Shown here: positions 1 through 45,549 of the stretch, piece after piece
Position numbering within the stretch: the stretch's first letter is position 1
Layout: each line of letters opens with the position of its first letter
IMG/VR virus record: IMGVR_UViG_3300045988_159943
Location: 32,309-96,308 of that record
Reading direction: 5' to 3' (one strand)
Length of the DNA: 64,000 bases
Source: a virus
Notes under the pieces: generated by a model
Seen by the model: only the letters and a program-made list of their open reading frames with translations
The model's database searches: none
Told to the model about the DNA's origin: nothing
Translations under genes and position numbers: made by a program

Positions 1-3000
1 CCCAAGTGCATTCTCCAGTCGTGTCATGTTTTTCGTTTTGGAATTCTTGTACTTTAGTGGCATCAACACCAGCTTGGACCATTAAAGTCGGAGTGATACC
101 ATTAATAGCAGTATTGATATCTGCCGCAGCAGCAGTTGGGTCAACACCAAGTTTTGCTAAAATTTCTGGACTTGACTGTTGTAATGCAGCAATTGTTGTA
201 TTTAAATCAGCCTGTGCTTGTGTTGTATCTCCACCAACAGCAGTCTGAATCTCAAGAGTGTTGTAATTAGTTTTAAACTCATTAATGAGATTTATTACAT
301 TCTGAACATCTGTTTCAGAAGTGCTTGTATCAACCTGTAATATTGCAGGGGTTTCTAAAGCTTGTTTTCTAGAGATTAGAGTGGCAAGCATTACTTGGGC
401 CTCTTCACAGCCCTCTGCTTCTATATTGATTGTGCCATCAGAGTTCACAAAATGATTTAGGGCTTTTTGTGCTTCTTGAATTTGGCTTATAATATCATCA
501 ATATTGTTAGATTCAATATTAAATGTATAATCTGTTGCTCCAGTTTCTTTTAAAGTGTCATTAGCCTTTTCTGCTTCTTTGTTTCTTTTTTCAGATTTAT
601 TGATTGCTGCATCAATTTCTGCTTCAACATCATAATCTCCGTCTGAAATTTTCTTCAGTATTGCAGCAAGTTCTTTTAAAGATTCTAGTGAGTCTTTAGT
701 GTTAATATTAAGATCAGGCATGCCATCAAGAGTATCCTTGACTTCTTCTAGTAAAGACTTAGTTTCTTTTAACTGATCATTTGTATTTTCTTGCTCTGTA
801 GTAGTAGAACCTTCAATTTGTTTTTTTTGATTTAACAAAGTTAAATAATCTTCTACTTTTTTCTTTTCTTCCTCGCTTAAATTTGCCTTTACTTCTGCTG
901 GAATAGTCCATTCTCCATTTTCATCTTGTATCAACTTAGGAGTAACTTTCAATTCCAGTTCAGCATTGTCAGCTTTCCATTGTTCTATTTGCCCATTAAT
1001 ACTATCAAGAGCCAATTGAATAACAACCTCAGAAGGTTCTATTAATTGACTTTTAACATCAACTGCCTGTTGTAATTCTGTTGTAGCTGCCGCAAGCTCA
1101 TCTGTTTTTACTTGAATTTCTGCCTCGCTTGCGCCATCTTCTTTCATTTGAGCAATTTCATCGTTTAAACTTTTAACCTTATCGTAAGCAGTTTGATAAT
1201 TATTATTCGCATCAATCCATGCCGCTGCACTTTCCTGGGCTTTCTTAGCATTGTCACTTTGTGTTTTAGATAACTCCTGATATTTGGCATTATATTCATC
1301 TACACTAACTTCTCCATTAGCCATTGCATGCTCCAAATCAGCCATTGCAGAAGTTGTTTCATAAATAGAAGTAGAAAGCTTATTTGGATCAAGTTGATCT
1401 AAGAAACTTTGATTATCTCCATTGATCCACTCGCCATCCATCTTCTCCATATTTACTAACAAAGCGTATGCTGCTTCTTCTGTAATATTAAACGCTTCTG
1501 CAAATTGCTTTAAAGAAGTAATGTCCTTACTTAGCTCAATATGGTTATTGTCCTTCCCGGTAAATACTCCAAGAGCCCTGCCATCCTTAATTAAATTGGT
1601 CATATTATCCCAAGTAGAATCAATATTGCCGTCACTATCAATAGTGAAATAACGACCCAGATCTTGCTTGGCATAATTATAAATTGCCTGCATCTTTGCT
1701 TCGACAGTATCTAAATCTTTGTAGACGCTTTCAGGAACCATACCAGCAATTGCCGCCTTAAAGGTTTCAGTTCCTACCATACCAGTTTCAAAGCCGTCTA
1801 ACAGAGCAGATAACATATTCTCTGTGTTGCTAATGTAATCAGTAGCAGAGTCTGCGGCTTGGGCCTGTTCGAACTGAGTGTACGCATTTGTTGCACCAAG
1901 AATTTCTTGTTCAAGCATACTATATTTAGTTATAGTCTGCTCAAGCGCATTCATTTGGTCATAAATGGCATTAACCTGTTCTCTCTGTGCGTCAGTTAGT
2001 TGATTTGTGCCATTTGTTAACTCGTGCATTTGTTTATAAAGCTCATAGTACTTCAATTGAGATTGTGATTTTGCAAGTCTTGTATTTTCTAGAACACCCT
2101 TTTTAGCATTTTGCACATATTGATTTAACAAATCAACATTAGTAACAATATTACCATTCTCTGTATCAATACATTTACCAACTTGCTCTGCTGTCAAACC
2201 AATAGAAGAAAGTGAAGTAACATAATCATCAGATGCCTGCATACCTTCGACAGTTAATTCAGCAGTATTAGATAAAGCTTCATTATAAGTTTCAAGATCT
2301 GTTGCTAAAACAGAATATGTTTTAATTTCTGTTGGGCCTTTTTCAATTATTGGATTGAGTACATCATCTATATTTTCTTCTGATACATTTTCCCATTCAA
2401 CTTCAAAAAGTCTTTGGACAGTTATTGGATCAAGATTATTAATATAATTTGTCGCTTGCTCCTCTGTCATTCCCTTAAAATCCTGAAGTGCTTGCTTAAC
2501 TTTTCCTTCATAGACTGATGTATCTGGAATTTCAATGCCCATCATCTTGAAGAAATCATCTTCGGACATTTTTGTACCATTTTCGCCTAATGTGTTATTA
2601 TCTCCACCAAAAGCATTCCAAAGATCTTCTCTATTTTTTGCAATAGTCTTTTGATATTCTGCCCAATTTAATCCACTCATGTCTGGTTCGAGTAGATTCT
2701 GATATGCCTCTGTGATAGCAGCTGACGTATTAGGGTCTGTAAATGGAGAAAGGATATTAGCGTCAATCCAAGCATATAATGCGTCTGCAGAATCAAAGCG
2801 ATTAAGAGTATCTGCATCTAAACTAGAAATAATTGTATCAACTGCGCTTTGAGCCTTATTATCTAATTTTGCATAATCTAAATCTTCACCAAGATATGCA
2901 TCCATTAAAGTTTTAACTTTACTAGTTTCTGCATTAATTGTTGCCACAGATGTTTTTAAATAAGATTGAAGTTTTGGCATAGCTTTTTGCAAAGCTTCCA

Positions 3001-6000
3001 AATCTACACCTGTACTAGCATCCCATACATCGCCTTTATCTATGCCAACGCTATTAAGCATATTTTTTAAATCTGTTTCTGAATAAGATGCCCCAATAGG
3101 TACGTCAAAGAACGAGTTAAGCCCACCAATATTCTCATTGCCAATCAAATTAACTAAGCGCTCTGCTAATTCAACTTGTTGTTTTAAGCCAGTATCTTTT
3201 TCCCAGAACCATTGTGCAGAATTATCATAATCACCTTTAAATGCATTAAATACATCATCTGCACCTGCAATAGCTGCTTGACGTGCCGCCTGTGCTTGTT
3301 CTTCATATGCTGCAGTTAGCGCTTCTACATTGCCTTTATTTTTTAAAATAGCATTTCCTTCAGCATCATAACCACTAACCATTGTCGGAAATTGTGATGC
3401 AATTTGATTGCAAATTTCATGATAACGTTCATATTGATCAGATGTTAGACTAATATTATTACCAAATGCATCTACACCTTTTGCAAGAGTCTCATATTCG
3501 CTTCCAACAGAATTAATAAGGTCTTTAGATTTATTCGCATTTTCTTTTGCATCACTATAAGTATCAAGTACTTCTTTGGCACTTTCTCTAAGGTTTTCTT
3601 GTTTATGAATTAAATCATCAATCCAACCAATTGTCTTTTCAATAGCAAAAGATACTAATAAGCCAATACCAAAAGTGAGTACAGCATTAAGTAATTTAAC
3701 ACCAGCACTTGCAGCTTTAGCTGCTACACCTACTAATTTTGTTTTGTTTGCGTTTGCTTCATTTGCAGCACCTGCAGCCTTACTGGAAGCAGACTGTCTC
3801 TTTTGCGCATCAGATAAGTCGTCCATTCCATCAACAGCGCCACTGGTAAAGTTTATAAAATCATCCATTTGCATATCATCTGTTACATTTGAAAAAGACG
3901 ACCCTAAAATATCTGCCATTTCATCAGCAGCATCTCCTACATCTTTAACAAATGCATTTTTAATTTTTGAACCAAGATCTTTAAATGAAAAATCAGATAA
4001 ACCATTTACAATTGACGCACCAAAATTCTTAACAGATTGGCCGCTTCCACCTAATTTAAACCATCCATCTTGAAAGGTGATAAAGTCTCCAAGTGAATTA
4101 CTTTTAAATGCACTAAATGTAAATATACCTGCCATAGCAGCGTTTAGCAATCCTACATTATCTGTGGCTTCAACTATAACTCTTCCAAGGTCGATAAAGA
4201 ATTTTAACATATCAGAGTTTAGTGCATTCATCCACATCGTTTGAAGAGAATTATTAAATTGGTCTATTTTACCTTGAACACTGTCTAAATAGGCTTCGTT
4301 TTCTTGCATTGCACTGCCTTCGGCATTTAGAGCAGATTCATAAGCACCAGAGAGGTCGTCCATGTTGCCCAAAAGGGCAGCTAGAACGTTAGAACGGTTC
4401 TTGCCTGCCATGAGTTCGAGGAGCGCTGCCTGGTCTACGTCGCTCATATCTTCCCAAACTTGGCCTATTTCTTTTAAAATCGTATATGTATCTTTGTAAT
4501 CTCCTGTCTCGGTTAAAATATTTACTCCACTGGCAGCTTTAATTTTTGCTTGCATTTTACTAATGCCTTCAACAATACCGTCAGTTTCTTCCCCGAGCTC
4601 TTGCATAACCTCAAGCGAGGTTCCACGTAAACGTAGAGAAATTGTACGCAAAGCGTTACCTACTTGGTTGGGATCTTGTACAACCTTGTTCGCTGCTGCA
4701 ATCAAGGCCACTGATTGTTCGAGGTTATTTCCACCTTCCATAAGGGCACTTGCTGAATCTTGTAGTGCTGTTGCGAGACCATCACTAGACACCGCAAAAT
4801 TGTTTCCTACTTCATTTAAAATATCAACAACGTGCTGACTATCATCCGCAGTATATTGGAAAGCCTGCATTGTACTAATTAATGCCTCAGATGCCTGTGT
4901 CGCATCAGTAAATTCAGAAACATTTAGTAGAATTGCAGTACTTTCTGCGAGTTTAGCTGAATCTTCAATTGAGTAGCCTAATCTTGCCCATTCTGCACTC
5001 ATCGTAGTGAGCTCAGAAACGGTACTTCCAATTACTCCGGCAGTTTTTGAAGCAGTCTGTAAAAATTGATTATAAGTTGCGTCTGTTTCATTTGTAACTT
5101 TTTTCAATTCAGTAAGAGCAGTATCAATTTCTCTTACATATTGAATACCATTTCGAACCTGTTGAATAACTTCATCAATGCCTATTCTTGCGGCGGTATA
5201 TTGAAGTAACTCTTTACCTTTTTTTTTAAGTTCACCGAACACTGAAGTCAACACATTCGTAGATTTTTCTACTTTTTGTGTGGTACTTCCAATCATGCTC
5301 ATAGATGTATCAAAAGAGGCACTCATTTGCGAAACTGTACCATCAGCATTTTTTAATGTAAAACTTAATTTTTTTACGCTATCATCAAATTCACCTATGG
5401 CCGCATCTGCACCATAAACATTTTGAACATAATCTTTTAAAGCATTACCTCGGCCAGCTTCATCATCTAAATCATATGCACCATTAAGCTTTTCAATATT
5501 CTTATTTTTACTTTGAAAAGATTCAGATTGCTTAATAAGATTACTTAACGCTCTGGCACAATCATTATATTTTATTTTTAATTCACCAAATTCGACTATT
5601 GCCTGCGAAGCCTCTGCAGAATTTGAATCTTGAATTGCGCTAAACTTTTTCTGCGCATTAATTAAATTATTTAATGCCGCAGTATATTTGTTTAATGCAT
5701 CTTCAGCAAGAGTAGAGCCACTTTGAACATAAGGTATAGCGCTTTGAGATAATGCATTATATCTAGATGTTGCTGCATATACATAACTTTTCCCATAGTT
5801 TGCCATACTCTTTGTTGACTTCTTCGCCGTTTGATCAGTTATATTATTTTGCACCTTATAGGCATTAATTTCCTTCTCTAACGCTGCAATAACGGTATTA
5901 ATGTCATTCACCTGTGCGCTAGTTGCATTTGCAGAGTTCTTTTTAAGCGCCTTTATTTGTGTAATAATATCTTGATACTTATCTGCAATTGATTTTTGCT

Positions 6001-9000
6001 CTGAGGTCAAGTCAGGTGTAGTTAAATCAAAGTCAAGAGATTTAAATAATTTATTTACCTTGTCTTTTTGTGCCTTTGTTGTCTGTTCAATCTTTGCCAT
6101 ATTTTTCTCGGCATTGAACGCCGAGAAAGCAGAGTCTAACTCTTTAATTGCTTGCTCAGCCGTCTTTGCGCCAGATTGAACTTCATTAGCCAAATTATCC
6201 CAAATGTTAGAAAATTGACTAGACTGTTGAAATTCATTTCCAAGAGATTTTAAATGAGATTCAAGTTGTTGAACTTCAGATATGTTTTGTTCAACATTTG
6301 AGACACTCATTGTGTCGTCAAACAAATTAATTTGCCCATCAAGATTTTCAATATTTTTAACAGTATCCTCTAATTTAGATGCACTATCATTTGCTTTCTG
6401 CGCATCTTCAGCCATATTTTCAAAAAGAGACATCTGCCCACTTGGAGTTTCATACAACTTCTTTTCTTTACCGTCACCAAAGCCTTCTTTATCGTAGCCA
6501 CGGTCTTCATTTCTAGTCTTTATCTCTCCAAGTTCTGTTTTGGCTTTATTGAAAGCCTCATTAACTTGTTCTAACTCATCAGCAGTTATTTTTCCTTGTT
6601 CGCCAAGCGCATCCAACTCTTTCTTTGCAGTTTCAAGTTTTTCTGTATTAATACCAACATCAAAATTAGACATATCGTCTCTCGTCCAAGCACTTGAAAT
6701 ATCGCTACAAAGTTTATTGAATTCTTCTACTTTATTTGATGCGTCTTGTGCTTCGGTGCCCATTTCTCCAATTGTTGCGCTAGTCTTTTGAAATTCACTA
6801 GGATCAATGCCAAAATCTGCGGCCATTCTTGCGGCTAATTGGTCAACAGTCATTAGGCCGTCTTCTACATCAACTATGTAATCCCTAAGTTGATCTACAT
6901 CAGCAGGATGATAGAATTTATCTAAAAAAGAAGAATCATTGTCAGAGAAAATCTTTTTTATTCCATCATTTATATCAGAATATGTTAAGTTTGCTTCCTC
7001 TCGAAGCTCTTTGTATTTATTTTTCTGTTCCTCTAAATTTCTCTTCGCATCTTCAACAGAACTTTTGGCTATTTTACTAGCTTGTACCAAAGAACCATCT
7101 TCGTCTATAATATTTTCCCGTTTCGCAATTTTATTAAAAATTTCTGCCGCATTATCTTCGGAAAAATTTTCAAATAAATCTTCATATTTTGAAAGATCAA
7201 TAGTTCCATTTTTAAAAGTTGACAGTAATGCTTTAAATTTTTCAAGAGGCGTAAGTGATTTACCTGCATTTTCTCCAACATTAGAGATATATTGCGCTAA
7301 CTCATTAAACTGAGAAGTATCCCACGTCTTTGCTACATTGGCATAGTCGGGATTAATTTCAGCCAGAATACTATTAAACTTTTTTGCACTGATACTTCTT
7401 GTTTTTGATTTTGCTACGGCAGCATCCACTTTTTCTACGGCCACAGCTAAATCTTCAAGCTTCACCTTGGTTAAGTCAATGGTCGTAATATAATTATCCC
7501 CAACCATTGCGCTTAAAGGCGCTAGTCCACTTTTATATGTTTTAACTGCATTACTAAAATCATCAGAGTTGATATTAGCACTTAAACCTTGGTGTGAATG
7601 CGCATTAACAAGAGTATTTGAATTTAAGTTTGCTAAATAAGAATCTACGACAGTATTTAATGGCACCGATTTATTTGCGCCAGCTCGCATGTCTATCTCT
7701 TGCCCATTAACTAAAATTTTATACTCAACTTCTGATTTTTGAGATCCTACGTCAAACATTCTTCGAAGCGCATTTGCCATATTGTTAATATATTCAGTTG
7801 CGCTAATAGCCTTTTGGCCAGCTTGGTCTATTGCGGCAGCAGGCCCTTGTGTACCATCACTAATAATTCCCTTCATATTGGCAATAACCTGTTGTGTAGT
7901 CTCTTCGTCGAGGCCAAGGTCAGTTAATGTCATCTTTTTGTTTGCTTCTAATTTATTTAATGCCTCTTCTTGAATATTAAACGTTTCTTTGAATTTTTCT
8001 TTTAAAGAGTCTAATTTATCCTCAAGAAGATCATAAGCTTTTGGACTCAGTTCAACATTATTTAGCTTTTGAGCCCATAAATCAATTTCTCTTAAACTTC
8101 TTTCAACTGGGTCTGTATATTGTTCAAGATCTTTTGCACTGACAAGCCCATCAATACTTTTAAGCGCCCTTACAGTTTCCTTATTATCAGCAATAGCTTG
8201 CTGAATAAAATCTTGTTGATTAGCTTTGATAACCTTATTATATTGATCTGCACTCATTCCAGAGTAAAATTTCAACGTATCATATAAATTCTTTTTGCCT
8301 TTCCGTGCGCCATTCTCAGTAGCCTTGAACGTCTCCATTAATGCATTATCGTTTTTTACAGTATCGGATGCCTTTTGCACTTTCATTGTTGCATCTGCTA
8401 GCTGAAGCAAACTATTTGCATATTCTTCTGCAGATAATTTTCCAGAACTAATTTTCTGGCTCAACATATCAATTTCATCAAAAAGTTTGATAATATTATC
8501 AGTCGTTATTTCAATTCCATAATCATCTGAAATTGCAACGGGGCCATTTTTCTTAACATCAGCTACTAAATCTGCTTTTTTACTTATTTGGGTTTTAAGT
8601 TTTTTTAATCTATCAATTTGTTGATTTATTTCATCAATTTGCTTTTGAGTTTCTTCACTAAATTTTTTTCCTTTATTTTTTACATTTTTAGTAGCATCAT
8701 CAAAACCCTCGGCAATTTCATCACCAATACCATCTACTTGAGAAGAATCAATTTTTCCGATAGAAAGAGTTATTTGTGAACCAATTTGATTAATATATCC
8801 AATTAATTCATCTCTTTGCTCTCCTAAGCTCTTGGCATCAAATATGTCAAAATCAATCTTACTGGCAAGCCCAAGACCTGCCATCATAGTATTAATCTGA
8901 GTTGCAATATCTCTAATTTGTGTTGAAGCATTAGATTTTCTCAAATCAACATTGAGAATGTTTTCAGATAGCCCTCGTGTATCGTTAATTAATTTAGATA

Positions 9001-9265
9001 AATTTCCAAACTCTTTATCTAAATTATCCAAATATCCACCACGTAATTGCTTGCCAAAACTTTCTCTTAACTTGTCGCTATCTCTAGTAAGTCCTGCGAC
9101 TAAATCATCCATGCGCAAAAATGTTTCAAGGAGCTTATTCAGATTACCACGATTGCCAATCATGCCCATAACTTTTTCTGCTGATACAGCTTCGGCTTTT
9201 AAATTTTTTAGTCCAGATACCAAACTATCAATATTGATACTAGGTTTATAAGTATAATCCGCCAT
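1..9265 (-). CDS. Tail tape measure protein, 5' portion; ORF continues past the window start, so at least ~3088 aa
   Basis: The minus strand has no stop from the ATG at 9265-9263 to coordinate 1, because no minus ORF is listed in the track and plus ORFs here are short. My own translation shows an alpha-helical A/K/E/L-rich protein. It contains the TP901-family tape measure core, around ...GVIGSTVSELTTMSAEWARLGYSIED...NKVVQDPNQVGNALRTISLRLRG... RBS GGAGGTGAAATAAATG. Confidence 0.75.
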   Translation of the reverse strand, partial: MADYTYKPSINIDSLVSGLKNLKAEAVSAEKVMGMIGNRGNLNKLLETFLRMDDLVAGLTRDSDKLRESFGKQLRGGYLDNLDKEFGNLSKLINDTRGLSENILNVDLRKSNASTQIRDIATQINTMMAGLGLASKIDFDIFDAKSLGEQRDELIGYINQIGSQITLSIGKIDSSQVDGIGDEIAEGFDDATKNVKNKGKKFSEETQKQIDEINQQIDRLKKLKTQISKKADLVADVKKNGPVAISDDYGIEITTDNIIKLFDEIDMLSQKISSGKLSAEEYANSLLQLADATMKVQKASDTVKNDNALMETFKATENGARKGKKNLYDTLKFYSGMSADQYNKVIKANQQDFIQQAIADNKETVRALKSIDGLVSAKDLEQYTDPVERSLREIDLWAQKLNNVELSPKAYDLLEDKLDSLKEKFKETFNIQEEALNKLEANKKMTLTDLGLDEETTQQVIANMKGIISDGTQGPAAAIDQAGQKAISATEYINNMANALRRMFDVGSQKSEVEYKILVNGQEIDMRAGANKSVPLNTVVDSYLANLNSNTLVNAHSHQGLSANINSDDFSNAVKTYKSGLAPLSAMVGDNYITTIDLTKVKLEDLAVAVEKVDAAVAKSKTRSISAKKFNSILAEINPDYANVAKTWDTSQFNELAQYISNVGENAGKSLTPLEKFKALLSTFKNGTIDLSKYEDLFENFSEDNAAEIFNKIAKRENIIDEDGSLVQASKIAKSSVEDAKRNLEEQKNKYKELREEANLTYSDINDGIKKIFSDNDSSFLDKFYHPADVDQLRDYIVDVEDGLMTVDQLAARMAADFGIDPSEFQKTSATIGEMGTEAQDASNKVEEFNKLCSDISSAWTRDDMSNFDVGINTEKLETAKKELDALGEQGKITADELEQVNEAFNKAKTELGEIKTRNEDRGYDKEGFGDGKEKKLYETPSGQMSLFENMAEDAQKANDSASKLEDTVKNIENLDGQINLFDDTMSVSNVEQNISEVQQLESHLKSLGNEFQQSSQFSNIWDNLANEVQSGAKTAEQAIKELDSAFSAFNAEKNMAKIEQTTKAQKDKVNKLFKSLDFDLTTPDLTSEQKSIADKYQDIITQIKALKKNSANATSAQVNDINTVIAALEKEINAYKVQNNITDQTAKKSTKSMANYGKSYVYAATSRYNALSQSAIPYVQSGSTLAEDALNKYTAALNNLINAQKKFSAIQDSNSAEASQAIVEFGELKIKYNDCARALSNLIKQSESFQSKNKNIEKLNGAYDLDDEAGRGNALKDYVQNVYGADAAIGEFDDSVKKLSFTLKNADGTVSQMSASFDTSMSMIGSTTQKVEKSTNVLTSVFGELKKKGKELLQYTAARIGIDEVIQQVRNGIQYVREIDTALTELKKVTNETDATYNQFLQTASKTAGVIGSTVSELTTMSAEWARLGYSIEDSAKLAESTAILLNVSEFTDATQASEALISTMQAFQYTADDSQHVVDILNEVGNNFAVSSDGLATALQDSASALMEGGNNLEQSVALIAAANKVVQDPNQVGNALRTISLRLRGTSLEVMQELGEETDGIVEGISKMQAKIKAASGVNILTETGDYKDTYTILKEIGQVWEDMSDVDQAALLELMAGKNRSNVLAALLGNMDDLSGAYESALNAEGSAMQENEAYLDSVQGKIDQFNNSLQTMWMNALNSDMLKFFIDLGRVIVEATDNVGLLNAAMAGIFTFSAFKSNSLGDFITFQDGWFKLGGSGQSVKNFGASIVNGLSDFSFKDLGSKIKNAFVKDVGDAADEMADILGSSFSNVTDDMQMDDFINFTSGAVDGMDDLSDAQKRQSASSKAAGAANEANANKTKLVGVAAKAASAGVKLLNAVLTFGIGLLVSFAIEKTIGWIDDLIHKQENLRESAKEVLDTYSDAKENANKSKDLINSVGSEYETLAKGVDAFGNNISLTSDQYERYHEICNQIASQFPTMVSGYDAEGNAILKNKGNVEALTAAYEEQAQAARQAAIAGADDVFNAFKGDYDNSAQWFWEKDTGLKQQVELAERLVNLIGNENIGGLNSFFDVPIGASYSETDLKNMLNSVGIDKGDVWDASTGVDLEALQKAMPKLQSYLKTSVATINAETSKVKTLMDAYLGEDLDYAKLDNKAQSAVDTIISSLDADTLNRFDSADALYAWIDANILSPFTDPNTSAAITEAYQNLLEPDMSGLNWAEYQKTIAKNREDLWNAFGGDNNTLGENGTKMSEDDFFKMMGIEIPDTSVYEGKVKQALQDFKGMTEEQATNYINNLDPITVQRLFEVEWENVSEENIDDVLNPIIEKGPTEIKTYSVLATDLETYNEALSNTAELTVEGMQASDDYVTSLSSIGLTAEQVGKCIDTENGNIVTNVDLLNQYVQNAKKGVLENTRLAKSQSQLKYYELYKQMHELTNGTNQLTDAQREQVNAIYDQMNALEQTITKYSMLEQEILGATNAYTQFEQAQAADSATDYISNTENMLSALLDGFETGMVGTETFKAAIAGMVPESVYKDLDTVEAKMQAIYNYAKQDLGRYFTIDSDGNIDSTWDNMTNLIKDGRALGVFTGKDNNHIELSKDITSLKQFAEAFNITEEAAYALLVNMEKMDGEWINGDNQSFLDQLDPNKLSTSIYETTSAMADLEHAMANGEVSVDEYNAKYQELSKTQSDNAKKAQESAAAWIDANNNYQTAYDKVKSLNDEIAQMKEDGASEAEIQVKTDELAAATTELQQAVDVKSQLIEPSEVVIQLALDSINGQIEQWKADNAELELKVTPKLIQDENGEWTIPAEVKANLSEEEKKKVEDYLTLLNQKKQIEGSTTTEQENTNDQLKETKSLLEEVKDTLDGMPDLNINTKDSLESLKELAAILKKISDGDYDVEAEIDAAINKSEKRNKEAEKANDTLKETGATDYTFNIESNNIDDIISQIQEAQKALNHFVNSDGTINIEAEGCEEAQVMLATLISRKQALETPAILQVDTSTSETDVQNVINLINEFKTNYNTLEIQTAVGGDTTQAQADLNTTIAALQQSSPEILAKLGVDPTAAAADINTAINGITPTLMVQAGVDATKVQEFQNEKHDTTGECTW

Positions 9266-15758: not shown

Positions 15759-16281
15759 TCTCTGCCACCCCCTCATCTGTATTTGATGCCATATTTACGT
15801 CTTGAATAACAATATATGCGTTAACAGCGCACTGCACATCATCAACAGCAGGAATAGAACTCGCAGAAAAAGTGATAGTGTTTTCCCCCTGTTCTGTTGC
15901 AGTTACTTTTGCTGCATTATATGCATCTTCACTGTCTGGATCTGGAGATACAGAAATCCATTGTGTATTAACATCTGCATCTACTCCAGGTACATCAGCA
16001 GTTTGGGTGTAATATGTCTCGCCGGTTTCATCATCTATTTGTGCAGTCCAGCCTGGGTCTGTCAATGGTAAAGTAATTTTAAGCATGACAGGGATTCTTG
16101 CAGCCCCAATTGCATTTGGGTCAAGAGGGTCAGTGCCAGTAGACCAATGGTTCTCTGCGTGTTGAGCTGGTGCCACTCCAAGAGCTTCTGGAGAAAGGTC
16201 TGGTTTATTTGTTACACCTAATACATAGTCGAGTGGCAAATCTCCTGCCGTAGTTCTAATCGCAGTTACATAATCTGGCAT
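15748..16281 (-). CDS. hypothetical structural protein (177 aa)
   Basis: ORF in the fibre operon with a D/T/P-rich sequence. Confidence 0.4.
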   Translation of the reverse strand: MPDYVTAIRTTAGDLPLDYVLGVTNKPDLSPEALGVAPAQHAENHWSTGTDPLDPNAIGAARIPVMLKITLPLTDPGWTAQIDDETGETYYTQTADVPGVDADVNTQWISVSPDPDSEDAYNAAKVTATEQGENTITFSASSIPAVDDVQCAVNAYIVIQDVNMASNTDEGVAENAS

Positions 16282-33357: not shown

Positions 33358-33543
33358 CTATTTACTTATTTTATTTGTAATCCACTCATCAAGCGCTTCA
33401 TTAAATTCTTTTTTTGTCCTATCATAAACCCAAAATATCTTGTTACTATTTGGATTTAAGCCACAAACTCCATGCTTAATTCCTCTACTAGACAGGAACA
33501 CCTTGAGTTGTGGATTGTATGTGATATAAAAAACATTATCCAT
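33358..33543 (-). CDS. small paralog-family protein (DUF5659-like), copy A
   Basis: Start corrected to MDNVFYITY, with RBS AAAGGAGAATAAATATG. Shares G...KIFWVYD....EALDEW with four other small ORFs in the window. Confidence 0.45.
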   Translation of the reverse strand: MDNVFYITYNPQLKVFLSSRGIKHGVCGLNPNSNKIFWVYDRTKKEFNEALDEWITNKISK

Positions 33544-33571
33544 ATTTATTCTCCTTTGTATCTTTTTTAAT

Positions 33572-33606
33572 AAAGGACTAGTGGAAGTAATTTCCACTAG
33601 TCCTTT
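33572..33606. repeat. perfect 15-bp-arm palindrome (aaaggactagtggaa gtaat ttccactagtccttt)
   Basis: Read directly; lies between the fibre gene end at 33622 and the small gene start at 33543. Confidence 0.8.
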
Positions 33607-37236: not shown

Positions 37237-37383
37237 TTACACCCCCTTTGCATTTTTTACAGAAATAATATAATCATATTCCTGTTGATCAATTTTTTTA
37301 GAACCTAATAATTCTTTTATTTTCTTTTCATCAATCTTATCAGCTTTATATAGCCTTGCTAGGCTTTCAATAAATTGACTCAT
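37237..37383 (-). CDS. XkdX-like small protein (48 aa; below the ORF-track size cutoff)
   Basis: My own translation is MSQFIESLARLYKADKIDEKKIKELLGSKKIDQQEYDYIISVKNAKGV, with a near-perfect RBS GAAGGAGGTATATTATG. The ...GKI...EYD.I pattern matches PBSX XkdX-family proteins. Confidence 0.55.
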   Translation of the reverse strand: MSQFIESLARLYKADKIDEKKIKELLGSKKIDQQEYDYIISVKNAKGV

Positions 37384-37700
37384 AATATACCTCCTTCAAG
37401 TAATGAAAGAGTATAAGCATCAATAATCTCTTGTGGAGTTTTGTAATTCAGTACTTTTAACTGTTCATATTCATATTTGTCAATTTCTACTAAATCAACA
37501 GTATCATATCCATCTGCTGGGATATTAAGCAGCCAATTAAGATGCCAAACATATGAGCCGTCAGAGGACACAATTGCTTGTGCCTCTGACTTTTCACATA
37601 AAATCATAATGTCATGCTTTTTTTGATATTTGACAAAAATAAGATGGTCGAGTACGTCAATTACTTTTCCATCTTTTACAACTTTATAATACATACACAA
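37380..37700 (-). CDS. putative XkdW-like protein (106 aa)
   Basis: DGSYVWHLNWLLNIPADG resembles the XkdW/DUF2977 core; sits immediately upstream of the XkdX-like gene. Confidence 0.35.
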   Translation of the reverse strand: MCMYYKVVKDGKVIDVLDHLIFVKYQKKHDIMILCEKSEAQAIVSSDGSYVWHLNWLLNIPADGYDTVDLVEIDKYEYEQLKVLNYKTPQEIIDAYTLSLLEGGIL

Positions 37701-37710
37701 CCACCTCCAT

Positions 37711-40700
37711 TTAAATCGAGAACATAATTCTTACAGCGTACTCTTGTGTAGGAACTATAAACCCATACATGTCACCAGCAGTACGAACTACCCAAACGTA
37801 AGCATTATCTTTGTTTGGAGAACGAGTCCAATATGTCACGGCATTACCATCTTTGTCATAAAGAATTCTTGATGCTTGCGTGGTAAAGTAATCAATCGTA
37901 GAACCTTCACTAATATATGGATCAGTATTTTTAGTAGAATCAACTTCTATAGCCGAAGGAATGGCAATATAACAATCAGAAGTTGTAACTTCTAACGACT
38001 GGTCACCAATAGAAGATTTTATTTTTACTTGCTTCATTAACTGCTTCCACTTTTCTGGGAAAGCGTTATAAATTCTATTGTTCAAGTAAGCATTTAATTT
38101 CCATGTTGCCCAACCGCCAGTATTTTTACTTTCTGCACTTAATGACACTTTTCTAGAAAGTGGAGCAGAAGCTAGGAAAGACATAGAACAACGTTTGTTT
38201 GTATTATCACTTAAATAATAACGTTTAAACCCAGCCATTTCAAAATCAAATGCCTCATGGGGCCAATCAGCAATTTTCGCACAAATATTATCTCCTAAGT
38301 CTGCATACCAAATTTTACTCCAATATACAGTGCCAGCAGCATAATTTTCATATGCGCCATCGTCGGCCTTCCCACAACCGAATACAAGTGTATTGTTATG
38401 GATTGGAATACGTGAACCAGTTAATTCAACATAAGAGCTAGTTGTCGAAACAACGTTGGACGTATATATGTGCAATCCAGTTTCACCTTTCACGTGTCGT
38501 ATTACTAGCATCTCTCTATTACCAACGCTAGAAGGTGTAGTAGATGAAGTGCCCCATCCAAGTTTAATACCATTGTTATACCATAACTTAAATCCACTCA
38601 TACCATTATCAGAATAACATTGAGCAAAAATACTACTGTTCGTAGTAGAAGTCATTGAATAATCAATAGCTAAGACAAAATCTTTATCTTCGTCAAATAA
38701 CTTTTCTTTAGTATCAATATAATAGTCACTGCCATTAAAATTAGTTGGTTCAGAAACCAAAACCTTCTCTTGAATGTCTTCATAACTTACATCATTGCCA
38801 AGAGTAACAGTAATTGTATCTTTAGATTCTACATATTGACTTTCAAGGCCAAGTTGTATCATGGCATAAATTTCAACCGGACGCATAGTAGATATATCTT
38901 TGCCATCAAAATATCCTGCATTATATTCACAAGAATCATAGACAGCATTAATAGTCTTGTCACCATTCACATACCCACTCTTGTCCCATCCATCAAATAG
39001 ATAATACTTATAAGCTGATTCTTCTGCGGTATAAGTAGGAAGTTCTTCGGTATAAGTAACAATAGTTCCATAATTTGCTGTAGTCTCTTGTAGAACATTT
39101 CCATTAGACACATACTTTACGGTATATTGTCTTACAGACTCACTATAAACTGCACGAATTGTGGTATTTGCAAAAGTGTTTACAAATTCAGAATCCCAAC
39201 TAGCAAATGTAAAATCAGTACTTACAGTACTTGCTAGTGTTGGAGTTGGAATAGGGCTCTCTGCTCTAGTAATTGGGTCAACAGGCTTTGTACCCTTATC
39301 AACATACTGAATGTCAAGTACAGTATCGTCTTGATTTATAAATGTTACAGTGTATTGTGTGACTAGAGTGTTATAAGTAATTTCTAGATCTGGCCATGCG
39401 GCTTGATAACTTTCAAATTGTTTTTGCTTAATTACAGCACAATGAAAACTACCAGTAATAACAGACGTTATAGTTTCATAACCATCATTGTCAATACCTC
39501 TTAAAGATAAAAGTCTGTCTAAAACAGAAGAATCCTGAAGGTTATAATTTGCATCCCAATTTATACCGACTAGTCGTAAAATATTCAACTTATCAGCTAA
39601 ATTTACAACTTCGTAAGTGTTTATAAAAGGAGTATTTTCAATAATTAAAGTTTGAAGCCTATCATAACTTGCTACCTCAAACACTTCGATGTTGTTCAAA
39701 TTCTTCATAGTTAATGAAATAACAGATGGAATATATGCCCTTTCGAGCTTTCCACCATTTGAGAAGATGATGCCAGTTGCACCTGAGCCTTCCGCATGTA
39801 GTTCTAACAGGTTATTGCACTGAGACAAATCAACTACAGAATTAAGACCACTTACATTACGAATATCCAAATATTCTAGCAGCTTATTATTACCAAGCGT
39901 AATCTTAGTCATATATGTGTTTTCATAACCTTCAACATCACTACCAATGACTAAGTTCTGCAACCTTGATGCTTTAGAGAAATCATTATCACCAACATAG
40001 CACTTAGATAAATCTCCAATTGCTTGAATGAAGCTTGCGCCATATATCAACGTAATATCAGCCGTATCAGCATCAATAGAATAGGGGACTGTATATTCTA
40101 CTCCTGCTTTAGCTCTAAAGTTAACAGGAGAAACATTACCAAATTTAACACCTATATACATATCAGAATATGGAGTTAAATAAAGAGTAAAGTCTTGTGC
40201 CACAGTTGCACCAACAGGGTTATTAAAACGCATCATAATTTGATCCTGAGTAGCTTTATTGCCGAAATATTTTGTAGCCATGTAAAGCTCTTGATTGCGT
40301 TCAAACATTCTCCTTTGATATCTTTTTCTGCCATTTAACATTTCTACTAAGAAACGAGGGTTAGCAGTTCCTGCAATACTATTATCTATAGAGATGCCTT
40401 GATATGTACGTAAGTATTTTCTCTGAATATCTAGTCTCCATATCTCTTCTGGGAATTGACTTTGGGCCTTATCCCATTGACTAATTAGACTATCAGAACT
40501 CCAAGCGTTGGCATTTTCTCTATCTACAAACATTGCTTGTAGCTCAGACTTAAATAAATCACGAACTCTACAGAAGAAAGTACTCTCTGCTGCACGATAA
40601 ATATAGGAAGAAGAAGGATCTCCGTCTACGTAATAATCAACATCTTCTTTACCGTAGGTAAGAACTAGCTTACCTGTATTATCAATGCCTAAACATGTGT

Positions 40701-43700
40701 CGAAATCGTATCCGAAGGTTAAATCCCAACGATATCCATCATTGAACGCTGCTTGCTCATCATCAATGTATTCTTTGTCAACTTCATTGCCAAATTTTTC
40801 TGCAAAAGCGACTGCTTCCTCAGTAGTGAAATATGCTTTGCCATAATGCCAAAAACTATTTTTAGCTCGGTTATCGACCATAGTATATCTTTCAGTAAAT
40901 AGATAGTAGTAAAGCACTGAATCAACAACAAAATATTTCTTTAAATTAGCATAAAATTCTTCATCTGTTGAAGTAACAACGAACTTATACATTTCACGCC
41001 AAGCATTAATATTGACTTCACGTTGTTCTTCAGTAATACCTTTCATTTCATATCTAAATTCATAAGATGTATTACCAAATGAATTAAATTCTCCATCTTT
41101 ATATTCATAAGGTGTATATAAATAGTCATATGCTGTGTTGCCCTCTTTCCATTCTCCCACAGGACAAATTTCTTTGCCATTACCAGTCGGAAATTCAGCA
41201 AGAGGTACATTATAGTCCATGATTTCAATGACACATTCTCTTGGGTCTTTCTTGTCGTTAACTCTAGTATCATCAGTCTTTTTAGAATCTCCAACGTTAC
41301 CGAGTGCGTAATAATGCCAATTTGTATCCTGGAATTCACGGTGAGTAGCAATATCTTCGTTGCGTTCTCTGATGAACACTACGCAGTTCACAAATTCCAT
41401 ACAATCCTTGACCTTATTATCCTTAACTTTGGCAGAACGACTAAAGGGATTATAGGTATTATAACGACTTGCCATTTGGGCATTATTCTGATTTTCAGAC
41501 GATGCTATGTTCACCTTTACATTTAAATAGTCAGTCGGTACAGAGTCTCTAGTTAATGTAATTGTTTTACTCGTAGTTATACCATCACCAAGAGTAAATA
41601 GAGAAGTATCTCTGTCCATAATCAAGTCTAGATTTCTTCCAGCATAACCATATTCGTTAGAGGAGGTACCTTGACCAGAATGTTGTGCTCCGGTACAAGT
41701 CCAATTGTCTAGCACTGGGTCACCATTCTTATAAATCATTGTTACATTAGTATCTTCAACCTTGTTCTTCTTGTCATTAGTAAACCAAGGGGCATCAACC
41801 ATAATAATTCTTAAATCAGGACATTTTTCTGCAAAAACTTCGGGGGTTAACAAACCATTCTCGTCGTAAATTTGATTACGATTATATCTTGCGACCATCT
41901 CATCTGCATTTCTTGCATCTGCAATAAAGTTAGACAAGATTCCCCTATCGCTTAAACTTGCAGAATAAGCTTTCATCCTATAGATATAAACATCACAATC
42001 ATCACTACCAATAGTAATTGGCTGTGGCGTGTTCTGCATAAAAGAAGCGTCGGAGCTATAAATCATAGGTCTATTGCCAACACCATCTTCATATGTCAAC
42101 ACCATAGGAATATCAGTATCTTTATTAATATTGAACTCAAACTCAATAATATCTTCTTCGCAATAAGGAGAATATAAACTACCATTACTAGAGTAGATAT
42201 TTGCACTTTCAACTTTCATATCTAAACCAATATTATTATCTATGCAAGAAATAAATGAAGTATCTCTTTTCTTAATATTGGTAGTTTTAAACACTACTTT
42301 AAACTCTTTACCATTTCTCTTCGGATCATCTGCAAATAAATTATAATTAATAACCGCATTAGTGCCAGATTTAACGCAGAAATACTGGTCACCATTTTCA
42401 TCAATCTGATATCCTCCATTAATCCAGTCAAAATTATCAGAAACAGTCATAGTCACATCACCATCTGACCATAGCCTATCTGCGTCATTATTTGACTTAC
42501 CAGAAGGATTAAAATCAAACTCTAATCCTGCAGTAACAGGTTCAACATTAATATCAAGCTTTTCAACAGTAACGTTAAGAGTTTTAACAGTTTCCCTACA
42601 AGTAATAGTGAGTACGTGGAGACCAATAATATCTGTTTTATATTGCCACGTCTGAGTGTTACTATTTAAGGTTAAAGTAGAAATAGTCTCTCCATCAACT
42701 GCTAAAGTTACAACTGGACTTTCAGTCGTTGGGTCATAAACAGTATAAATAATATTAGTGGCATCATATTGTCTTGCTGTAAACTCTTGTTGCGTACATC
42801 CAATAACTGGAGCGTCATTTAACTCATCATACCAAATAATATCTTTATAGATATGATTTGACTCAACAATATTCCCATTAATCTCTGCAGTCATATAAAC
42901 TTCAAGCAAATGCGCCCCATGCGTCTGAGCAGGAATTTCATATGCCATAGGAATACCAGACACTGAAGTGTTTACTGTACCAATTTCAACACCATCGAGT
43001 TTAAAATATACATTCTTTGAAACTGCACCATAAGGAGTGTAATCAAAAGATACTTTTCCAATAGGATATGTAAGTTGATCATTAAAAGTAGATTCAATGC
43101 GCACATCTACTTTTTGAACTGTCCAAGTCTTAGTGACTAAACTACCAGCCTCATCAGTGATACTTAAATTTACTTTTTGAGTACCAAGAGTTAGATAATC
43201 GGTCACATCAAAAGAATTCTCACCAGCAATTGCTGTATTTGTTGCTACAATTTTACCAGCAACTTTCCATGTAGCTGTACCGTCTAAAACAGGGTCTCCA
43301 GACGAGTCTGTACCAGAAAAATTATATTTAATTATTACAGCGTCATTTAATGTTGCTACAAGTGGAGTTTTAGTCACATATTCAATCTTAAGAGTACTAC
43401 TTGTTGCAGAACCTCCACTTCCACCAACAATAGTAAATTTCTTTTTCGCTTCTTTTACTTCACTCTCCAAGCCTTCATTCTCAATTTCATAAAAAACAAA
43501 GACATTTTCTCCAACATCTGGGTCTGCTGCGTCGTTATATGCTACGTCATATGTTTTCTTAGGGGAAGTATCAATACTATCAATCGTTGATTGCAGATCT
43601 TGAACCACTGTACTCAAAGAGGAAATATTAGATGTATTTGTCTCTATGCCTGCTGTCTTTGAGTCTACTTCGACTTTTGTGTAATAGCCACTAAGGTCAA

Positions 43701-44814
43701 CTTCTACATTTGAAATTGCAGTGTCTACTTCAGACTTTGTATAAACATCTGCGCTCTTAGCATAATCTTGTAATTGATCAGAAACATCAACTGCGGCTAC
43801 TGCGCCATCTACGTATGTTTCAGTAGCTAAGCCATCAATACTAGGGATTTCCGTTTTAAGAGCATAGGCACTTAGGTCTTGGTGCTCGGTTAAATACCCC
43901 TTGTCATCAAGCTCTATTTCAGTTACATATTCATCTGGAACACTAGTGATGTACCCAGAATCATTTGTTAACTCACTTGTTTTAGTAGGAACATCAGCTA
44001 TTTTTGCATAATCAGTTAAATCAACTTCAACATTTGAAATTGCAGTATCAACTTCTGCCTTAGTATAGTAATTTCCTAGTTCAGCTTGTACTGCTGTTTG
44101 AGCTTCTTCTGCGGCTTGTTGGGCATCAGCAGCAGCTTGTTTTGCCTCAGTGACTTGTTGATCTACTTGTGCTGCCGCAACCTTTTCAGCTACAGATATA
44201 GCAACATTTTCTACAATCTCTTGTACCCAGTCATCACCAACAACTACAGGCTCACAATTAGGATCTTCACATAGAGATTTTATAATATTAAATTTATCAG
44301 TTGATTTTGATTTCCAACGATAACCATAGGATGTTCCTGTAGAATCAGAAATGCTACCATCTGCATGAATTTCAAATTTAATATTTCCAGATATATGAGT
44401 GGCATTAGTGTCAACTAGCCATGCAAATCTAATTTTATCAGTGCTATATTCTACATTAACTGGTTTTGAAGCAAAATGCTGTCCATCACTTGTTGTAAAG
44501 TGAATAGAGAGCGCCATATCAGCTAAATCAATACCATCATATCTTCGGGCCATCTCAAATGGAACAAATTGACTATTAGACTCTTGAGAAATATTAACTT
44601 GAGAATTATCTACTGTAATATTTTTATTATCATCAACGTATGATATTTTATCATCAGTGTAATCATTGAAGTAAGCATATCTACCAGTTGTATCTTTTGT
44701 AAAAGTTTCATTTGTTGCCGCAAAAGTCATTGCATCGTTAGATAATGACATCATCATTGGTACTGCGGCTTGTTCCAATGCTTGCTTCTTAGATTCTTCG
44801 AAAGAAAGTGCCAT
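37711..44814 (-). CDS. giant multidomain virion-associated protein (2367 aa): coiled-coil and fibre repeats, CotH-like domain, leucine-rich repeats, Flg_new repeats, C-terminal LamG/ConA-like lectin domain
   Basis: Uninterrupted ORF with RBS AAAGGAGGATTCTATG. CotH-like signature MVDNRAKNSFWHYG...GYRWDLTFGYDFDTCLG. LRR stretch LEYLDIRNVSGLNSVVDLSQCNNLLELH.... Flg_new repeats QYTVTF...FASW / YTVKYV...FDGW. C-terminal Laminin_G_3-like FVLAIDYS...FKLWYNNGIKLGW...TLVFGCG. Confidence 0.7.
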   Translation of the reverse strand: MALSFEESKKQALEQAAVPMMMSLSNDAMTFAATNETFTKDTTGRYAYFNDYTDDKISYVDDNKNITVDNSQVNISQESNSQFVPFEMARRYDGIDLADMALSIHFTTSDGQHFASKPVNVEYSTDKIRFAWLVDTNATHISGNIKFEIHADGSISDSTGTSYGYRWKSKSTDKFNIIKSLCEDPNCEPVVVGDDWVQEIVENVAISVAEKVAAAQVDQQVTEAKQAAADAQQAAEEAQTAVQAELGNYYTKAEVDTAISNVEVDLTDYAKIADVPTKTSELTNDSGYITSVPDEYVTEIELDDKGYLTEHQDLSAYALKTEIPSIDGLATETYVDGAVAAVDVSDQLQDYAKSADVYTKSEVDTAISNVEVDLSGYYTKVEVDSKTAGIETNTSNISSLSTVVQDLQSTIDSIDTSPKKTYDVAYNDAADPDVGENVFVFYEIENEGLESEVKEAKKKFTIVGGSGGSATSSTLKIEYVTKTPLVATLNDAVIIKYNFSGTDSSGDPVLDGTATWKVAGKIVATNTAIAGENSFDVTDYLTLGTQKVNLSITDEAGSLVTKTWTVQKVDVRIESTFNDQLTYPIGKVSFDYTPYGAVSKNVYFKLDGVEIGTVNTSVSGIPMAYEIPAQTHGAHLLEVYMTAEINGNIVESNHIYKDIIWYDELNDAPVIGCTQQEFTARQYDATNIIYTVYDPTTESPVVTLAVDGETISTLTLNSNTQTWQYKTDIIGLHVLTITCRETVKTLNVTVEKLDINVEPVTAGLEFDFNPSGKSNNDADRLWSDGDVTMTVSDNFDWINGGYQIDENGDQYFCVKSGTNAVINYNLFADDPKRNGKEFKVVFKTTNIKKRDTSFISCIDNNIGLDMKVESANIYSSNGSLYSPYCEEDIIEFEFNINKDTDIPMVLTYEDGVGNRPMIYSSDASFMQNTPQPITIGSDDCDVYIYRMKAYSASLSDRGILSNFIADARNADEMVARYNRNQIYDENGLLTPEVFAEKCPDLRIIMVDAPWFTNDKKNKVEDTNVTMIYKNGDPVLDNWTCTGAQHSGQGTSSNEYGYAGRNLDLIMDRDTSLFTLGDGITTSKTITLTRDSVPTDYLNVKVNIASSENQNNAQMASRYNTYNPFSRSAKVKDNKVKDCMEFVNCVVFIRERNEDIATHREFQDTNWHYYALGNVGDSKKTDDTRVNDKKDPRECVIEIMDYNVPLAEFPTGNGKEICPVGEWKEGNTAYDYLYTPYEYKDGEFNSFGNTSYEFRYEMKGITEEQREVNINAWREMYKFVVTSTDEEFYANLKKYFVVDSVLYYYLFTERYTMVDNRAKNSFWHYGKAYFTTEEAVAFAEKFGNEVDKEYIDDEQAAFNDGYRWDLTFGYDFDTCLGIDNTGKLVLTYGKEDVDYYVDGDPSSSYIYRAAESTFFCRVRDLFKSELQAMFVDRENANAWSSDSLISQWDKAQSQFPEEIWRLDIQRKYLRTYQGISIDNSIAGTANPRFLVEMLNGRKRYQRRMFERNQELYMATKYFGNKATQDQIMMRFNNPVGATVAQDFTLYLTPYSDMYIGVKFGNVSPVNFRAKAGVEYTVPYSIDADTADITLIYGASFIQAIGDLSKCYVGDNDFSKASRLQNLVIGSDVEGYENTYMTKITLGNNKLLEYLDIRNVSGLNSVVDLSQCNNLLELHAEGSGATGIIFSNGGKLERAYIPSVISLTMKNLNNIEVFEVASYDRLQTLIIENTPFINTYEVVNLADKLNILRLVGINWDANYNLQDSSVLDRLLSLRGIDNDGYETITSVITGSFHCAVIKQKQFESYQAAWPDLEITYNTLVTQYTVTFINQDDTVLDIQYVDKGTKPVDPITRAESPIPTPTLASTVSTDFTFASWDSEFVNTFANTTIRAVYSESVRQYTVKYVSNGNVLQETTANYGTIVTYTEELPTYTAEESAYKYYLFDGWDKSGYVNGDKTINAVYDSCEYNAGYFDGKDISTMRPVEIYAMIQLGLESQYVESKDTITVTLGNDVSYEDIQEKVLVSEPTNFNGSDYYIDTKEKLFDEDKDFVLAIDYSMTSTTNSSIFAQCYSDNGMSGFKLWYNNGIKLGWGTSSTTPSSVGNREMLVIRHVKGETGLHIYTSNVVSTTSSYVELTGSRIPIHNNTLVFGCGKADDGAYENYAAGTVYWSKIWYADLGDNICAKIADWPHEAFDFEMAGFKRYYLSDNTNKRCSMSFLASAPLSRKVSLSAESKNTGGWATWKLNAYLNNRIYNAFPEKWKQLMKQVKIKSSIGDQSLEVTTSDCYIAIPSAIEVDSTKNTDPYISEGSTIDYFTTQASRILYDKDGNAVTYWTRSPNKDNAYVWVVRTAGDMYGFIVPTQEYAVRIMFSI

Positions 44815-44853: not shown

Positions 44854-45078
44854 TTATAATTCGTGGGCTTGCCACTTTTTATATAAATCAGATATCAATG
44901 GACTCTTTTTAAATACAAAAACGAGGCAATCTCTTTTGGTATCAGTAAATAAAATATCTACCAATTCACTTTCTGCCCCATTTTGTAAATATTTATAACA
45001 TTGAATCATGTTCGTCAAATAGACCACATTATTATTTGAAGGGTCATAATGACGATTTAATATACGACTATATGCCAT
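44854..45078 (-). CDS. small paralog-family protein (DUF5659-like), copy B
   Basis: VVYLTNMIQCYKYLQNGAESELVDI...CLVFVFKKSPLISDLYKKW matches the family pattern. Confidence 0.45.
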   Translation of the reverse strand: MAYSRILNRHYDPSNNNVVYLTNMIQCYKYLQNGAESELVDILFTDTKRDCLVFVFKKSPLISDLYKKWQAHEL

Positions 45079-45192: not shown

Positions 45193-45549
45193 TTATTCTA
45201 TTGTAACTACTCCATTTAAAGATTCTTGAATCTCTTCTTTAACATCTTCGGAAATATCTTCTTCGATGACCCCAGCTTTTACCCTGAATCCACGCTTGGG
45301 TTTTGTCATAATTTCTTCAATTTCGCTGCGATAATGATCATTAAGCTTAATAGATAAATCGCAAGTAGATAAAGCCTCACTAGCCTCTTCTTTAGTGATT
45401 TTTTTTAAATTATAGTCAGTCAATGCTTTTGATATATTTTTACAATTCTCACTATCATAAATTGTATACCACGTTTCTTTTTTTGCATCTTTTCGGCAAC
45501 TCGGGCAATATTCATATTCTTTACCACATAAAATACATTTTCTAGCCAT
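45193..45549 (-). CDS. zinc-ribbon protein (118 aa)
   Basis: CILCGKEYEYCPSCRKD motif followed by an acidic C-terminus. Confidence 0.4.
   Translation of the reverse strand: MARKCILCGKEYEYCPSCRKDAKKETWYTIYDSENCKNISKALTDYNLKKITKEEASEALSTCDLSIKLNDHYRSEIEEIMTKPKRGFRVKAGVIEEDISEDVKEEIQESLNGVVTIE

Follow-up and report, generated by a model that had tools for sequence, protein, structure and literature searches.

The stretch of DNA considered here (64,000 nucleotides (nt) of the IMG/VR virus record IMGVR_UViG_3300045988_159943, positions 32,309 to 96,308; hereafter the window) carries on its minus strand a giant open reading frame (ORF) of 2367 amino acids (aa), which an earlier note, made from the letters alone, had placed exactly where we find it (37711-44814; Table 1). 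At 7.1 kb in DNA of 35% G+C, the frame is too long to be a chance occurrence, and the same protein is annotated, without a single difference, on two metagenome contigs of 160,308 bp and 13,928 bp. The phage that carries the gene is an SPbeta-like siphovirus of about 160 kb, and a megablast search of the locus against phage records gave no match. Judged from its sequence, the product is a real giant modular protein of the tail-fibre or adhesin type, encoded by a large phage of gut Clostridia, and its beta-rich, multidomain, adhesin-like character, which the earlier note had recognized, is supported. In the middle of this protein lies a domain which is predicted to adopt the fold of the atypical protein kinase CotH, and in which the motifs of the active site are invariant across the family.

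The fold assignment of this domain is secure for a predicted structure. An AlphaFold2 model of aa 981-1580 reached a mean predicted local distance difference test score (pLDDT) of 81 and a predicted template-modelling score (pTM) of 0.84, and a Foldseek search of this model against the PDB returned two significant matches only, both of them CotH of Bacillus cereus (5jda and 5jd9; E 1.7e-8, probability 1.0, target TM-score 0.68). At the level of sequence profiles, the CotH family of Pfam (PF08757) is reached transitively, through clear homologues. The homologue P0061 scores 31.4 bits over profile positions 115-321 of 322 and P0029 scores 25.1 bits, both above the gathering score; P0019 and P0056 fall slightly under it, and four of 11 members match at E<=0.1. 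These CotH-scoring homologues share 51-62% identity with the window protein, which itself, when scanned in pieces against Pfam at E<=10, gives a weak alignment of aa ~1250-1327 to profile positions 123-197 and stays below the threshold. Thus, the CotH-type domain proposed in the earlier note is borne out by the strong fold match and by the conserved catalytic motifs, whereas a CotH call above threshold holds for the two homologues and not for the window protein.

The distance from the characterized enzymes is large. Identity to Bacillus CotH (5JD9/5JDA) amounts to 9-11%, the phage domain comprises about 545 aa with large insertions as compared to 359 aa, and it is embedded in a fibre of 2367 aa, whereas CotH is a free-standing enzyme. 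No match was found by phmmer of CotH against all proteins retrieved, and when the PDB was searched by sequence with the N-terminus, the middle region, P0061 or the family profile, neither CotH nor any other entry was matched. A second large homologue search returned CotH proteins of Bacillaceae only, with 57-98% identity, a set too narrow to serve as a bridge.

In Bacillus subtilis, the exchanges D228Q and D251A each inactivate CotH (PMC7821199). The 5JD9 sequence contains the corresponding motifs QNFD-GFVH-N and PW-D-Y-D, and counterparts of both lie in the two peptides that the earlier note had quoted and that are indeed present, namely MVDNRAKNSFWHYG (aa 1312-1325, nt 40840-40881) and RWDLTFGYDFD (aa 1362-1372, nt 40699-40731). 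The window protein reads V-D1314-NRAK-N1319, with the D-x4-N spacing of CotH; an insertion and a strand follow this catalytic loop, and then G-Y-D1370-F-D1372-TCLG, which parallels P-W-D-Y-D-ATWG of CotH. In naive Pfam profile coordinates, the catalytic loop falls at ~187-190 in the phage family and at 182-195 in Bacillus, and the DxD motif at ~200-217 and 205-218, respectively. In an alignment of 116 members, taken from cluster representatives at 50% identity, D1314, K1318, N1319, Y1369, D1370 and D1372 are conserved in every sequence, so that the candidate catalytic residues D1314, N1319, D1370 and D1372 are invariant (the earlier note had suggested checking the conservation of kinase residues); D1364, in the first part of the second quoted peptide, is not conserved. 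The equivalence of these residues to D228, N233 and D251 of CotH is well supported but not proven, since none of the profile comparisons with the narrow clade of Bacillus CotH proteins succeeded.

Around this domain, an array of further modules can be delineated, little of which is visible to Pfam. A scan of the whole protein returned DUF6273 at the C-terminus as the sole match (E 1.4e-14), and the window sequence itself does not reach the thresholds for CotH, leucine-rich repeats (LRR), Flg_new or Laminin_G_3. As DUF6273 is also the only family found among 43 C-terminal homologues (in 40 of the 43), the LRR, B-repeat and ConA-like folds are visible only structurally.

The first 200 aa, for which Pfam and PDB sequence searches gave no match, are presumed to form a tail anchor that is exchangeable across the family. 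The adjoining coiled coil and fibre repeats, as described in the earlier note, are supported by weak Pfam matches and by internal repetition: YTKAEVDTAISNVEVDL is present twice, and a 47-bp repeat links 44021-44067 with 43697-43743. A 34-bp segment of the fibre repeats (43960-43993) also has a counterpart of 85% identity in the gene of the 1058-aa protein further downstream (24141-24174). The region aa 436-1116 matches two PHROGs of unknown function, phrog_14959 (E 6.6e-79) and phrog_24896 (E 1.9e-35), and aa 531-1016 align with p00 of the Hankyphage, a target of a diversity-generating retroelement (DGR; E 3e-18). Since the aligned part of p00 is Laminin_G_3 according to Pfam (E 8.3e-9), aa ~764-965 probably form a LamG-like domain in front of the kinase fold, a placement made only via this homologue and without a Pfam Laminin_G_3 call in the window protein.

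The model of the part that follows the kinase fold (AlphaFold2, aa 1546-2367; pLDDT 90.6) displays short periodic strands in the LRR region. Its region aa ~1615-1965 has as top Foldseek match the internalin domain and B-repeat of Listeria InlB (7pv9_A, E 2.5e-6), and the LRR region additionally shows a weak profile match to the LRR protein 7yjw. Both B-repeats carry a recognizable signature (QYTVTF...FASWD and QYTVKY...FDGWD), which Pfam Flg_new scores at E 0.35 at best. An LRR solenoid followed by B-repeats of the internalin type is hence predicted at the fold level only, in the same order as in InlB and, unlike there, as one module of a phage protein; the LRR and Flg_new repeats of the earlier note stand as predicted folds, with positions within ~100 nt, and fail as Pfam calls. 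Likewise, the C-terminal LamG/ConA-like domain of the earlier note is predicted as a fold, but slightly upstream of where it had been placed, the last 140 aa being DUF6273. This jelly roll resembles legume lectins, sialic-acid-binding CBM40 modules, NanB and pentraxin (Foldseek E 2e-5 to 1e-4, probability 1.0), while Laminin_G_3 (PF13385) is absent on the window protein and on the 43 C-terminal homologues.

The protein belongs to a large family. A profile search over 1.84 billion cluster representatives (50% identity) retrieved 2611 relatives at E<=1e-3, 1091 of them at E<=1e-30, mostly of 2000-3100 aa. Among 106 giant relatives, aa ~500-1950 are common to nearly all (more than 90% from aa ~500 onwards), whereas the first 350 aa are common to only 11-22%; the most conserved stretch of the family, aa 751-1200, comprises the LamG-like domain and the N-lobe of the kinase fold. 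Fibres commonly show this pattern, in which the core is conserved, the N-terminus is exchangeable and the C-terminus is less conserved. In species-representative genomes 35 loci were found, most of them in metagenome-assembled genomes (MAGs) of Clostridia, including Eubacteriales, Acutalibacteraceae, Lachnospiraceae and Ruminococcus, and three in isolates, namely Ruminococcus sp. YE282, Clostridium transplantifaecale Marseille-P8228 and Clostridium sp. chh4-2. Because the loci lie mostly in Clostridia and the lysins are of the Gram-positive type, the evidence points to gut Clostridia as hosts of the phage. The contigs of four loci (L009, L011, L014 and L024, some of 147-156 kb) are binned as Prevotella, Paludibacteraceae, Odoribacter or Parabacteroides and may be mis-binned phage contigs.

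In many close relatives, the gene is interrupted at the very codon of the DxD motif. About 90 of the 120 best database homologues are "DUF6273 proteins" of ~1000 aa that start at aa 1373 or 1385 of the window protein. At the one such locus inspected (L001; 83-86% amino-acid identity to the window protein), this protein is the second exon of a gene split directly after D1372 by an insert of 1026 nt (L001 8978-10003), and the ~1000-aa entries (P0002-P0118) are probably second-exon fragments of an intron-split gene as well. The insert encodes a 266-aa ORF with CxxC fingers and the endonuclease-type motif IEYDGEQHY. A distant relative, L034, carries a homologous insert of 1035 nt at the same codon (L034 2383-3417) with a 257-aa ORF, the motif shared by both intron ORFs being IEYDG(E/S)QHY. 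In L001, the exon sequence ACUUCGAU can pair with the intron sequence GUCGAAGU to form a P1 helix, as can ACAACGAU with GUCGUUGU in L034, and two compensatory base-pair changes in P1 distinguish the two loci. In both, the 5' exon ends in a U paired with G (U.G at the splice site), the insert ends in G, and the exons join precisely and in frame at D1372|T1373. Taken together, this is strong evidence for a mobile group I intron with a homing endonuclease. Rfam gave no match to a group I intron model at E<=1 for L001 8700-10300, perhaps because the ORF interrupts the core. The window allele lacks the intron, and its junction (window nt 40698/40699) reads GAC and not GAT. Homing of such introns is usually directed at strongly conserved DNA, in keeping with a DxD motif that never varies. 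In L025 (~3001-5670) a further insertion lies at another site, with ~880 extra nt in the kinase-fold region upstream of aa 1281.

The tube and zinc-ribbon genes, which the earlier note had named as upstream neighbours, are confirmed. The upstream genes comprise homologues of SPbeta YomW, YomV and YomU_Tube, and the link to SPbeta rests on precomputed Pfam matches (YomU_Tube, YomV_2nd and YomW) on identical and near-identical contigs; a blastp comparison of the window proteins with SPbeta YomN-YomW gave no significant match (YomR E 1.3, YomP E 0.61, YomQ no match). The literature search on YomU and YomV yielded unrelated papers only. In SPbeta, yomU (tube) and small genes are followed by yomS, yomR (XkdV-like), yomQ (XkdW-like) and yomP (XkdX), with the tape measure gene yomI much later. 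The window has the same succession, with the YomW, YomV and YomU_Tube homologues, small ORFs, the fibre gene, ORFs of ~105 and ~48 aa and a tape measure gene far later, but without significant similarity to YomR, YomQ, YomP or YomS, and the giant protein is six times as long as YomR. The XkdW/XkdX-like genes and the XkdV-type fibre of PBSX, to which the earlier note had compared the locus, accordingly find no counterpart in sequence: the two small downstream ORFs agree in position and size and match neither Pfam XkdW (PF09636) nor XkdX (PF09693), and the similarity of the giant protein to YomR is not significant.

A separate gene for the tape measure protein (TMP) exists at the window start. 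Its product is helical and matches PhageMin_Tail (PF10145) with 46.8 bits against a cutoff of 33.2; the ORF listing had missed it because it runs off the window start. Two cell-wall hydrolases are encoded between the fibre cluster and this gene and not at the end of the structural module. Within the cluster, the 489-aa and 79-aa ORFs have no counterpart in the otherwise syntenic L001 and lie in the stretch of lowest G+C in the window (0.30); they may be a free-standing mobile or endonuclease-type insertion. A DGR at this locus was considered and rejected, as no template/variable repeat pair was found near the giant gene, no repeat pair in the window involves its 3' end and the C-terminus is DUF6273; among the ORFs scanned, which are part of those in the window, there was no reverse transcriptase.

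Table 1. Features of the window discussed in the text (window positions; protein positions refer to the 2367-aa product)
Feature	Position (nt)	Strand	Basis or remark
Tail tube protein, 253 aa	45623..46384	-	PF27173 YomU_Tube on the identical contig and on the 92%-identical L001 gene; phrog_2729 virion structural protein
Zinc-ribbon protein, 118 aa (C5, C8, C15, C18; CxxC...CxxC)	45193..45549	-	Read from sequence; conserved in L001
74-aa ORF directly upstream of the giant gene	44854..45078	-	
Giant fibre/adhesin-type ORF	37711..44814	-	ATG start, 2367 aa + stop
N-terminal beta-rich domain, aa 1-200	44215..44814	-	In 11-19% of 106 giant homologues
A/Q/E-rich coiled coil, then fibre-type repeats, aa 205-430	43525..44202	-	Weak coiled-coil-type Pfam matches; reading of sequence
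Beta-rich array, aa 436-763; conserved family core begins	42526..43509	-	phrog_14959, phrog_24896
Putative LamG/ConA-like domain before the kinase fold, aa 764-965	41920..42525	-	Homology to Hankyphage p00
Predicted CotH-type atypical protein-kinase fold with insertions, aa 1001-1545	40180..41814	-	Predicted structure
Candidate catalytic-loop motif D1314-N-R-A-K1318-N1319	40858..40875	-	Matches CotH D228-x4-N233
Candidate metal-binding DxD motif Y1369-D1370-F-D1372	40699..40710	-	Matches CotH W-D251-Y-D253
Predicted leucine-rich repeats, aa ~1615-1800	39415..39972	-	AlphaFold2 model and Foldseek; boundaries from secondary-structure pattern
Two predicted B-repeat (Flg_new-like) domains, aa 1819-1965	38920..39360	-	InlB structural match; sequence signature
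Predicted ConA-like jelly roll, aa ~2000-2200	38215..38817	-	Foldseek; boundaries from secondary-structure pattern
DUF6273 C-terminal domain, aa 2228-2367	37714..38133	-	Pfam PF19789, 54.8-57.9 bits vs cutoff 23.5
104/106-aa ORF directly downstream, XkdW position	37380..37700	-	No family match; 84% in L001
48-aa ORF, XkdX position and size	37237..37383	-	No significant match; annotated as gene on other contigs
Run of fibre/adhesin-like genes, ~23 kb, between giant gene and lysins	14451-37233	-	
79-aa ORF	33358-33597	-	
489-aa ORF, treble-clef zinc finger	31858-33327	-	DUF4379, phrog_4538
Flg_new_2 + F5/8 type C	26997-28811	-	
Metallophosphoesterase	25472-26983	-	
1058-aa protein with phage tail repeat	22284-25460	-	
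Flg_new protein	20783-22270	-	
Peptidase_S74 chaperone domain	14451-15776	-	
Amidase_2 cell-wall hydrolase	13008-13808	-	
CHAP + PG_binding_1 cell-wall hydrolase	11065-11814	-	
Tape measure protein, at least 3088 aa, running off the window start	2..9265	-	Stop-free frame; PF10145

Proteins of this kind have been noted before, and the statement of the earlier note that a CotH-like domain in a phage structural protein is rarely described does not hold for giant proteins of more than 2000 aa that combine CotH with LamG or LRR. DGR targets of ~2000 aa with CotH and Laminin_G_3 motifs form category f1 of Wu et al. (2018), and PC_00012, a viral DGR target of 2284 aa, contains a CotH-like kinase (Roux et al., 2020). 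The CotH-family kinase domain in phage genomes has been called "currently unstudied" (Benler et al., 2021), and 'domain group 3' comprises variable proteins of more than 2000 aa with motifs of the CotH active region beside carbohydrate-binding motifs and LRR (Macadangdang et al., 2024). The window protein shares with these gut-phage proteins the size above 2000 aa, the predicted order of LamG-like or carbohydrate-binding, CotH-like and LRR motifs and the location in the tail module, and function is unstudied in all of them. In contrast to them, the window gene lacks a DGR, a C-type-lectin variable region and a template/variable pair nearby; its product ends in predicted B-repeats, a predicted ConA-like fold and DUF6273; the host of its phage, which has an SPbeta-like genome of ~160 kb, belongs to the Clostridia and not to Bacteroides; and the gene is located between the tube and TMP genes and not after Dit/Tal. 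The homologue in NatCom_3357 (30.7% identity over aa 508-1946) follows TMP, Dit and Tal and precedes holin and endolysin, which is the fibre slot, and the Hankyphage homologue, a DGR target of 2245 aa, follows TMP, baseplate hub and minor tail protein and has a C-terminus diversified by the DGR like that of receptor-binding proteins. The window protein is thus a non-DGR member of an already noted, unstudied kind of protein.

As for its role, we consider it probable, with moderate confidence, that the protein is a giant fibre or adhesin with a working CotH-type kinase, which acts most likely during virion assembly; it is no substitute for a TMP. The exchangeable N-terminus would attach the fibre to the tail, and the LRR, lectin and DUF6273 modules at the C-terminus would recognize the host. 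The CotH-like domain would be a working phosphotransferase and not a decayed relic, because D1314, K1318, N1319, D1370 and D1372 are invariant across members that are less than 50% identical elsewhere. Bacillus CotH phosphorylates coat proteins and thereby patterns the spore coat; by analogy, the phage kinase would act in the infected cell during assembly, on the fibre itself or on neighbouring virion proteins, since adenosine triphosphate (ATP) is available only inside the cell. Less likely, the kinase would act on the envelope of the host once the phage has adsorbed. Several observations weigh against an active kinase of the CotH type in this fibre. A virion fibre works outside the cell, where ATP is absent. 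The window protein scores 8.5 bits against PF08757, as compared to the cutoff of 23.8 (E 1.8), and the 5JD9 sequence was matched neither by hhalign with a 15-sequence alignment nor by hmmsearch and hhalign with the 116-sequence domain alignment, which also failed to match an alignment of 121 Bacillus CotH sequences. The equivalence of the active-site residues hence rests on the motif pattern, the order of the fold and approximate profile coordinates. A scan of the window for serine-rich substrates resembling CotB or CotG found none, the stretches richest in serine lying in the fibre-like proteins, and trimerization of the fibre is assumed from the coiled coil.

Some of these points favour a purely adhesive protein, whose CotH-like domain would be non-catalytic and serve as a scaffold only or as a metal and phosphate pocket for a ligand on the host surface, for example teichoic-acid phosphate or a group resembling a nucleotide sugar. 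Besides the lack of extracellular ATP and the distance of the window sequence from canonical CotH, the embedding of the kinase fold among binding modules (LamG-like before, LRR and lectin after) would agree with such a role, a metal-mediated phosphate-binding site would conserve the D/N/D residues just as well, and the CotH surface invasins of Mucorales are a precedent for adhesion. Pseudokinases, however, have as a rule lost either the DxD motif or the catalytic Asp, whereas here all five residues named above persist in the 116 members, and no other part of the protein is as conserved as the kinase core with the LamG domain; we therefore regard a non-catalytic domain as a serious but unlikely alternative. 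The intact appearance of the catalytic motifs would equally suit a protein, or kinase part, that enters the host at infection and takes over the cell by phosphorylating its proteins, as a role in host signalling was speculated for CotH-like DGR targets (Roux et al., 2020) and a phage kinase with host targets is known in T7 gp0.7. This is improbable in view of the architecture of an external fibre (coiled coil, LRR, lectin folds and DUF6273), the location of the gene in the fibre cluster and not among early or internal-protein genes, and the receptor-binding-like diversification of the Hankyphage homologue. That the giant protein replaces the TMP, in whose usual position the earlier note had seen the gene, is suggested by its place behind the tube gene and two small ORFs, as is that of the TMP in many siphoviruses; with a separate helical ORF matching PF10145, with the beta-rich, multidomain nature of the giant protein and with the same order of tube, fibre module and TMP in SPbeta, we give this next to no credence.

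In the midst of a probable host-recognition fibre there lies a predicted kinase fold whose active site is conserved without exception. It is a doubtful but consequential proposition that the virion bears an active CotH-like enzyme with a part in infection itself, which would phosphorylate, or transfer phosphate esters onto, an envelope polymer or receptor of the host, or would carry out a phosphorylation required for assembly. If true, such a virion-borne enzyme would be the first virion kinase of the Fam20/CotH type and would have been conserved in thousands of gut phage lineages. For database annotation, the ~1000-aa "DUF6273 proteins" can be corrected, as they begin exactly at the intron site. 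Few unannotated phage proteins in gut metagenomes match the giant CotH/LamG/LRR proteins in size and spread; the window gene represents a clean, intron-free, non-DGR example of this kind, and homologues in cultured Clostridia make the question of the role of their kinase fold testable.

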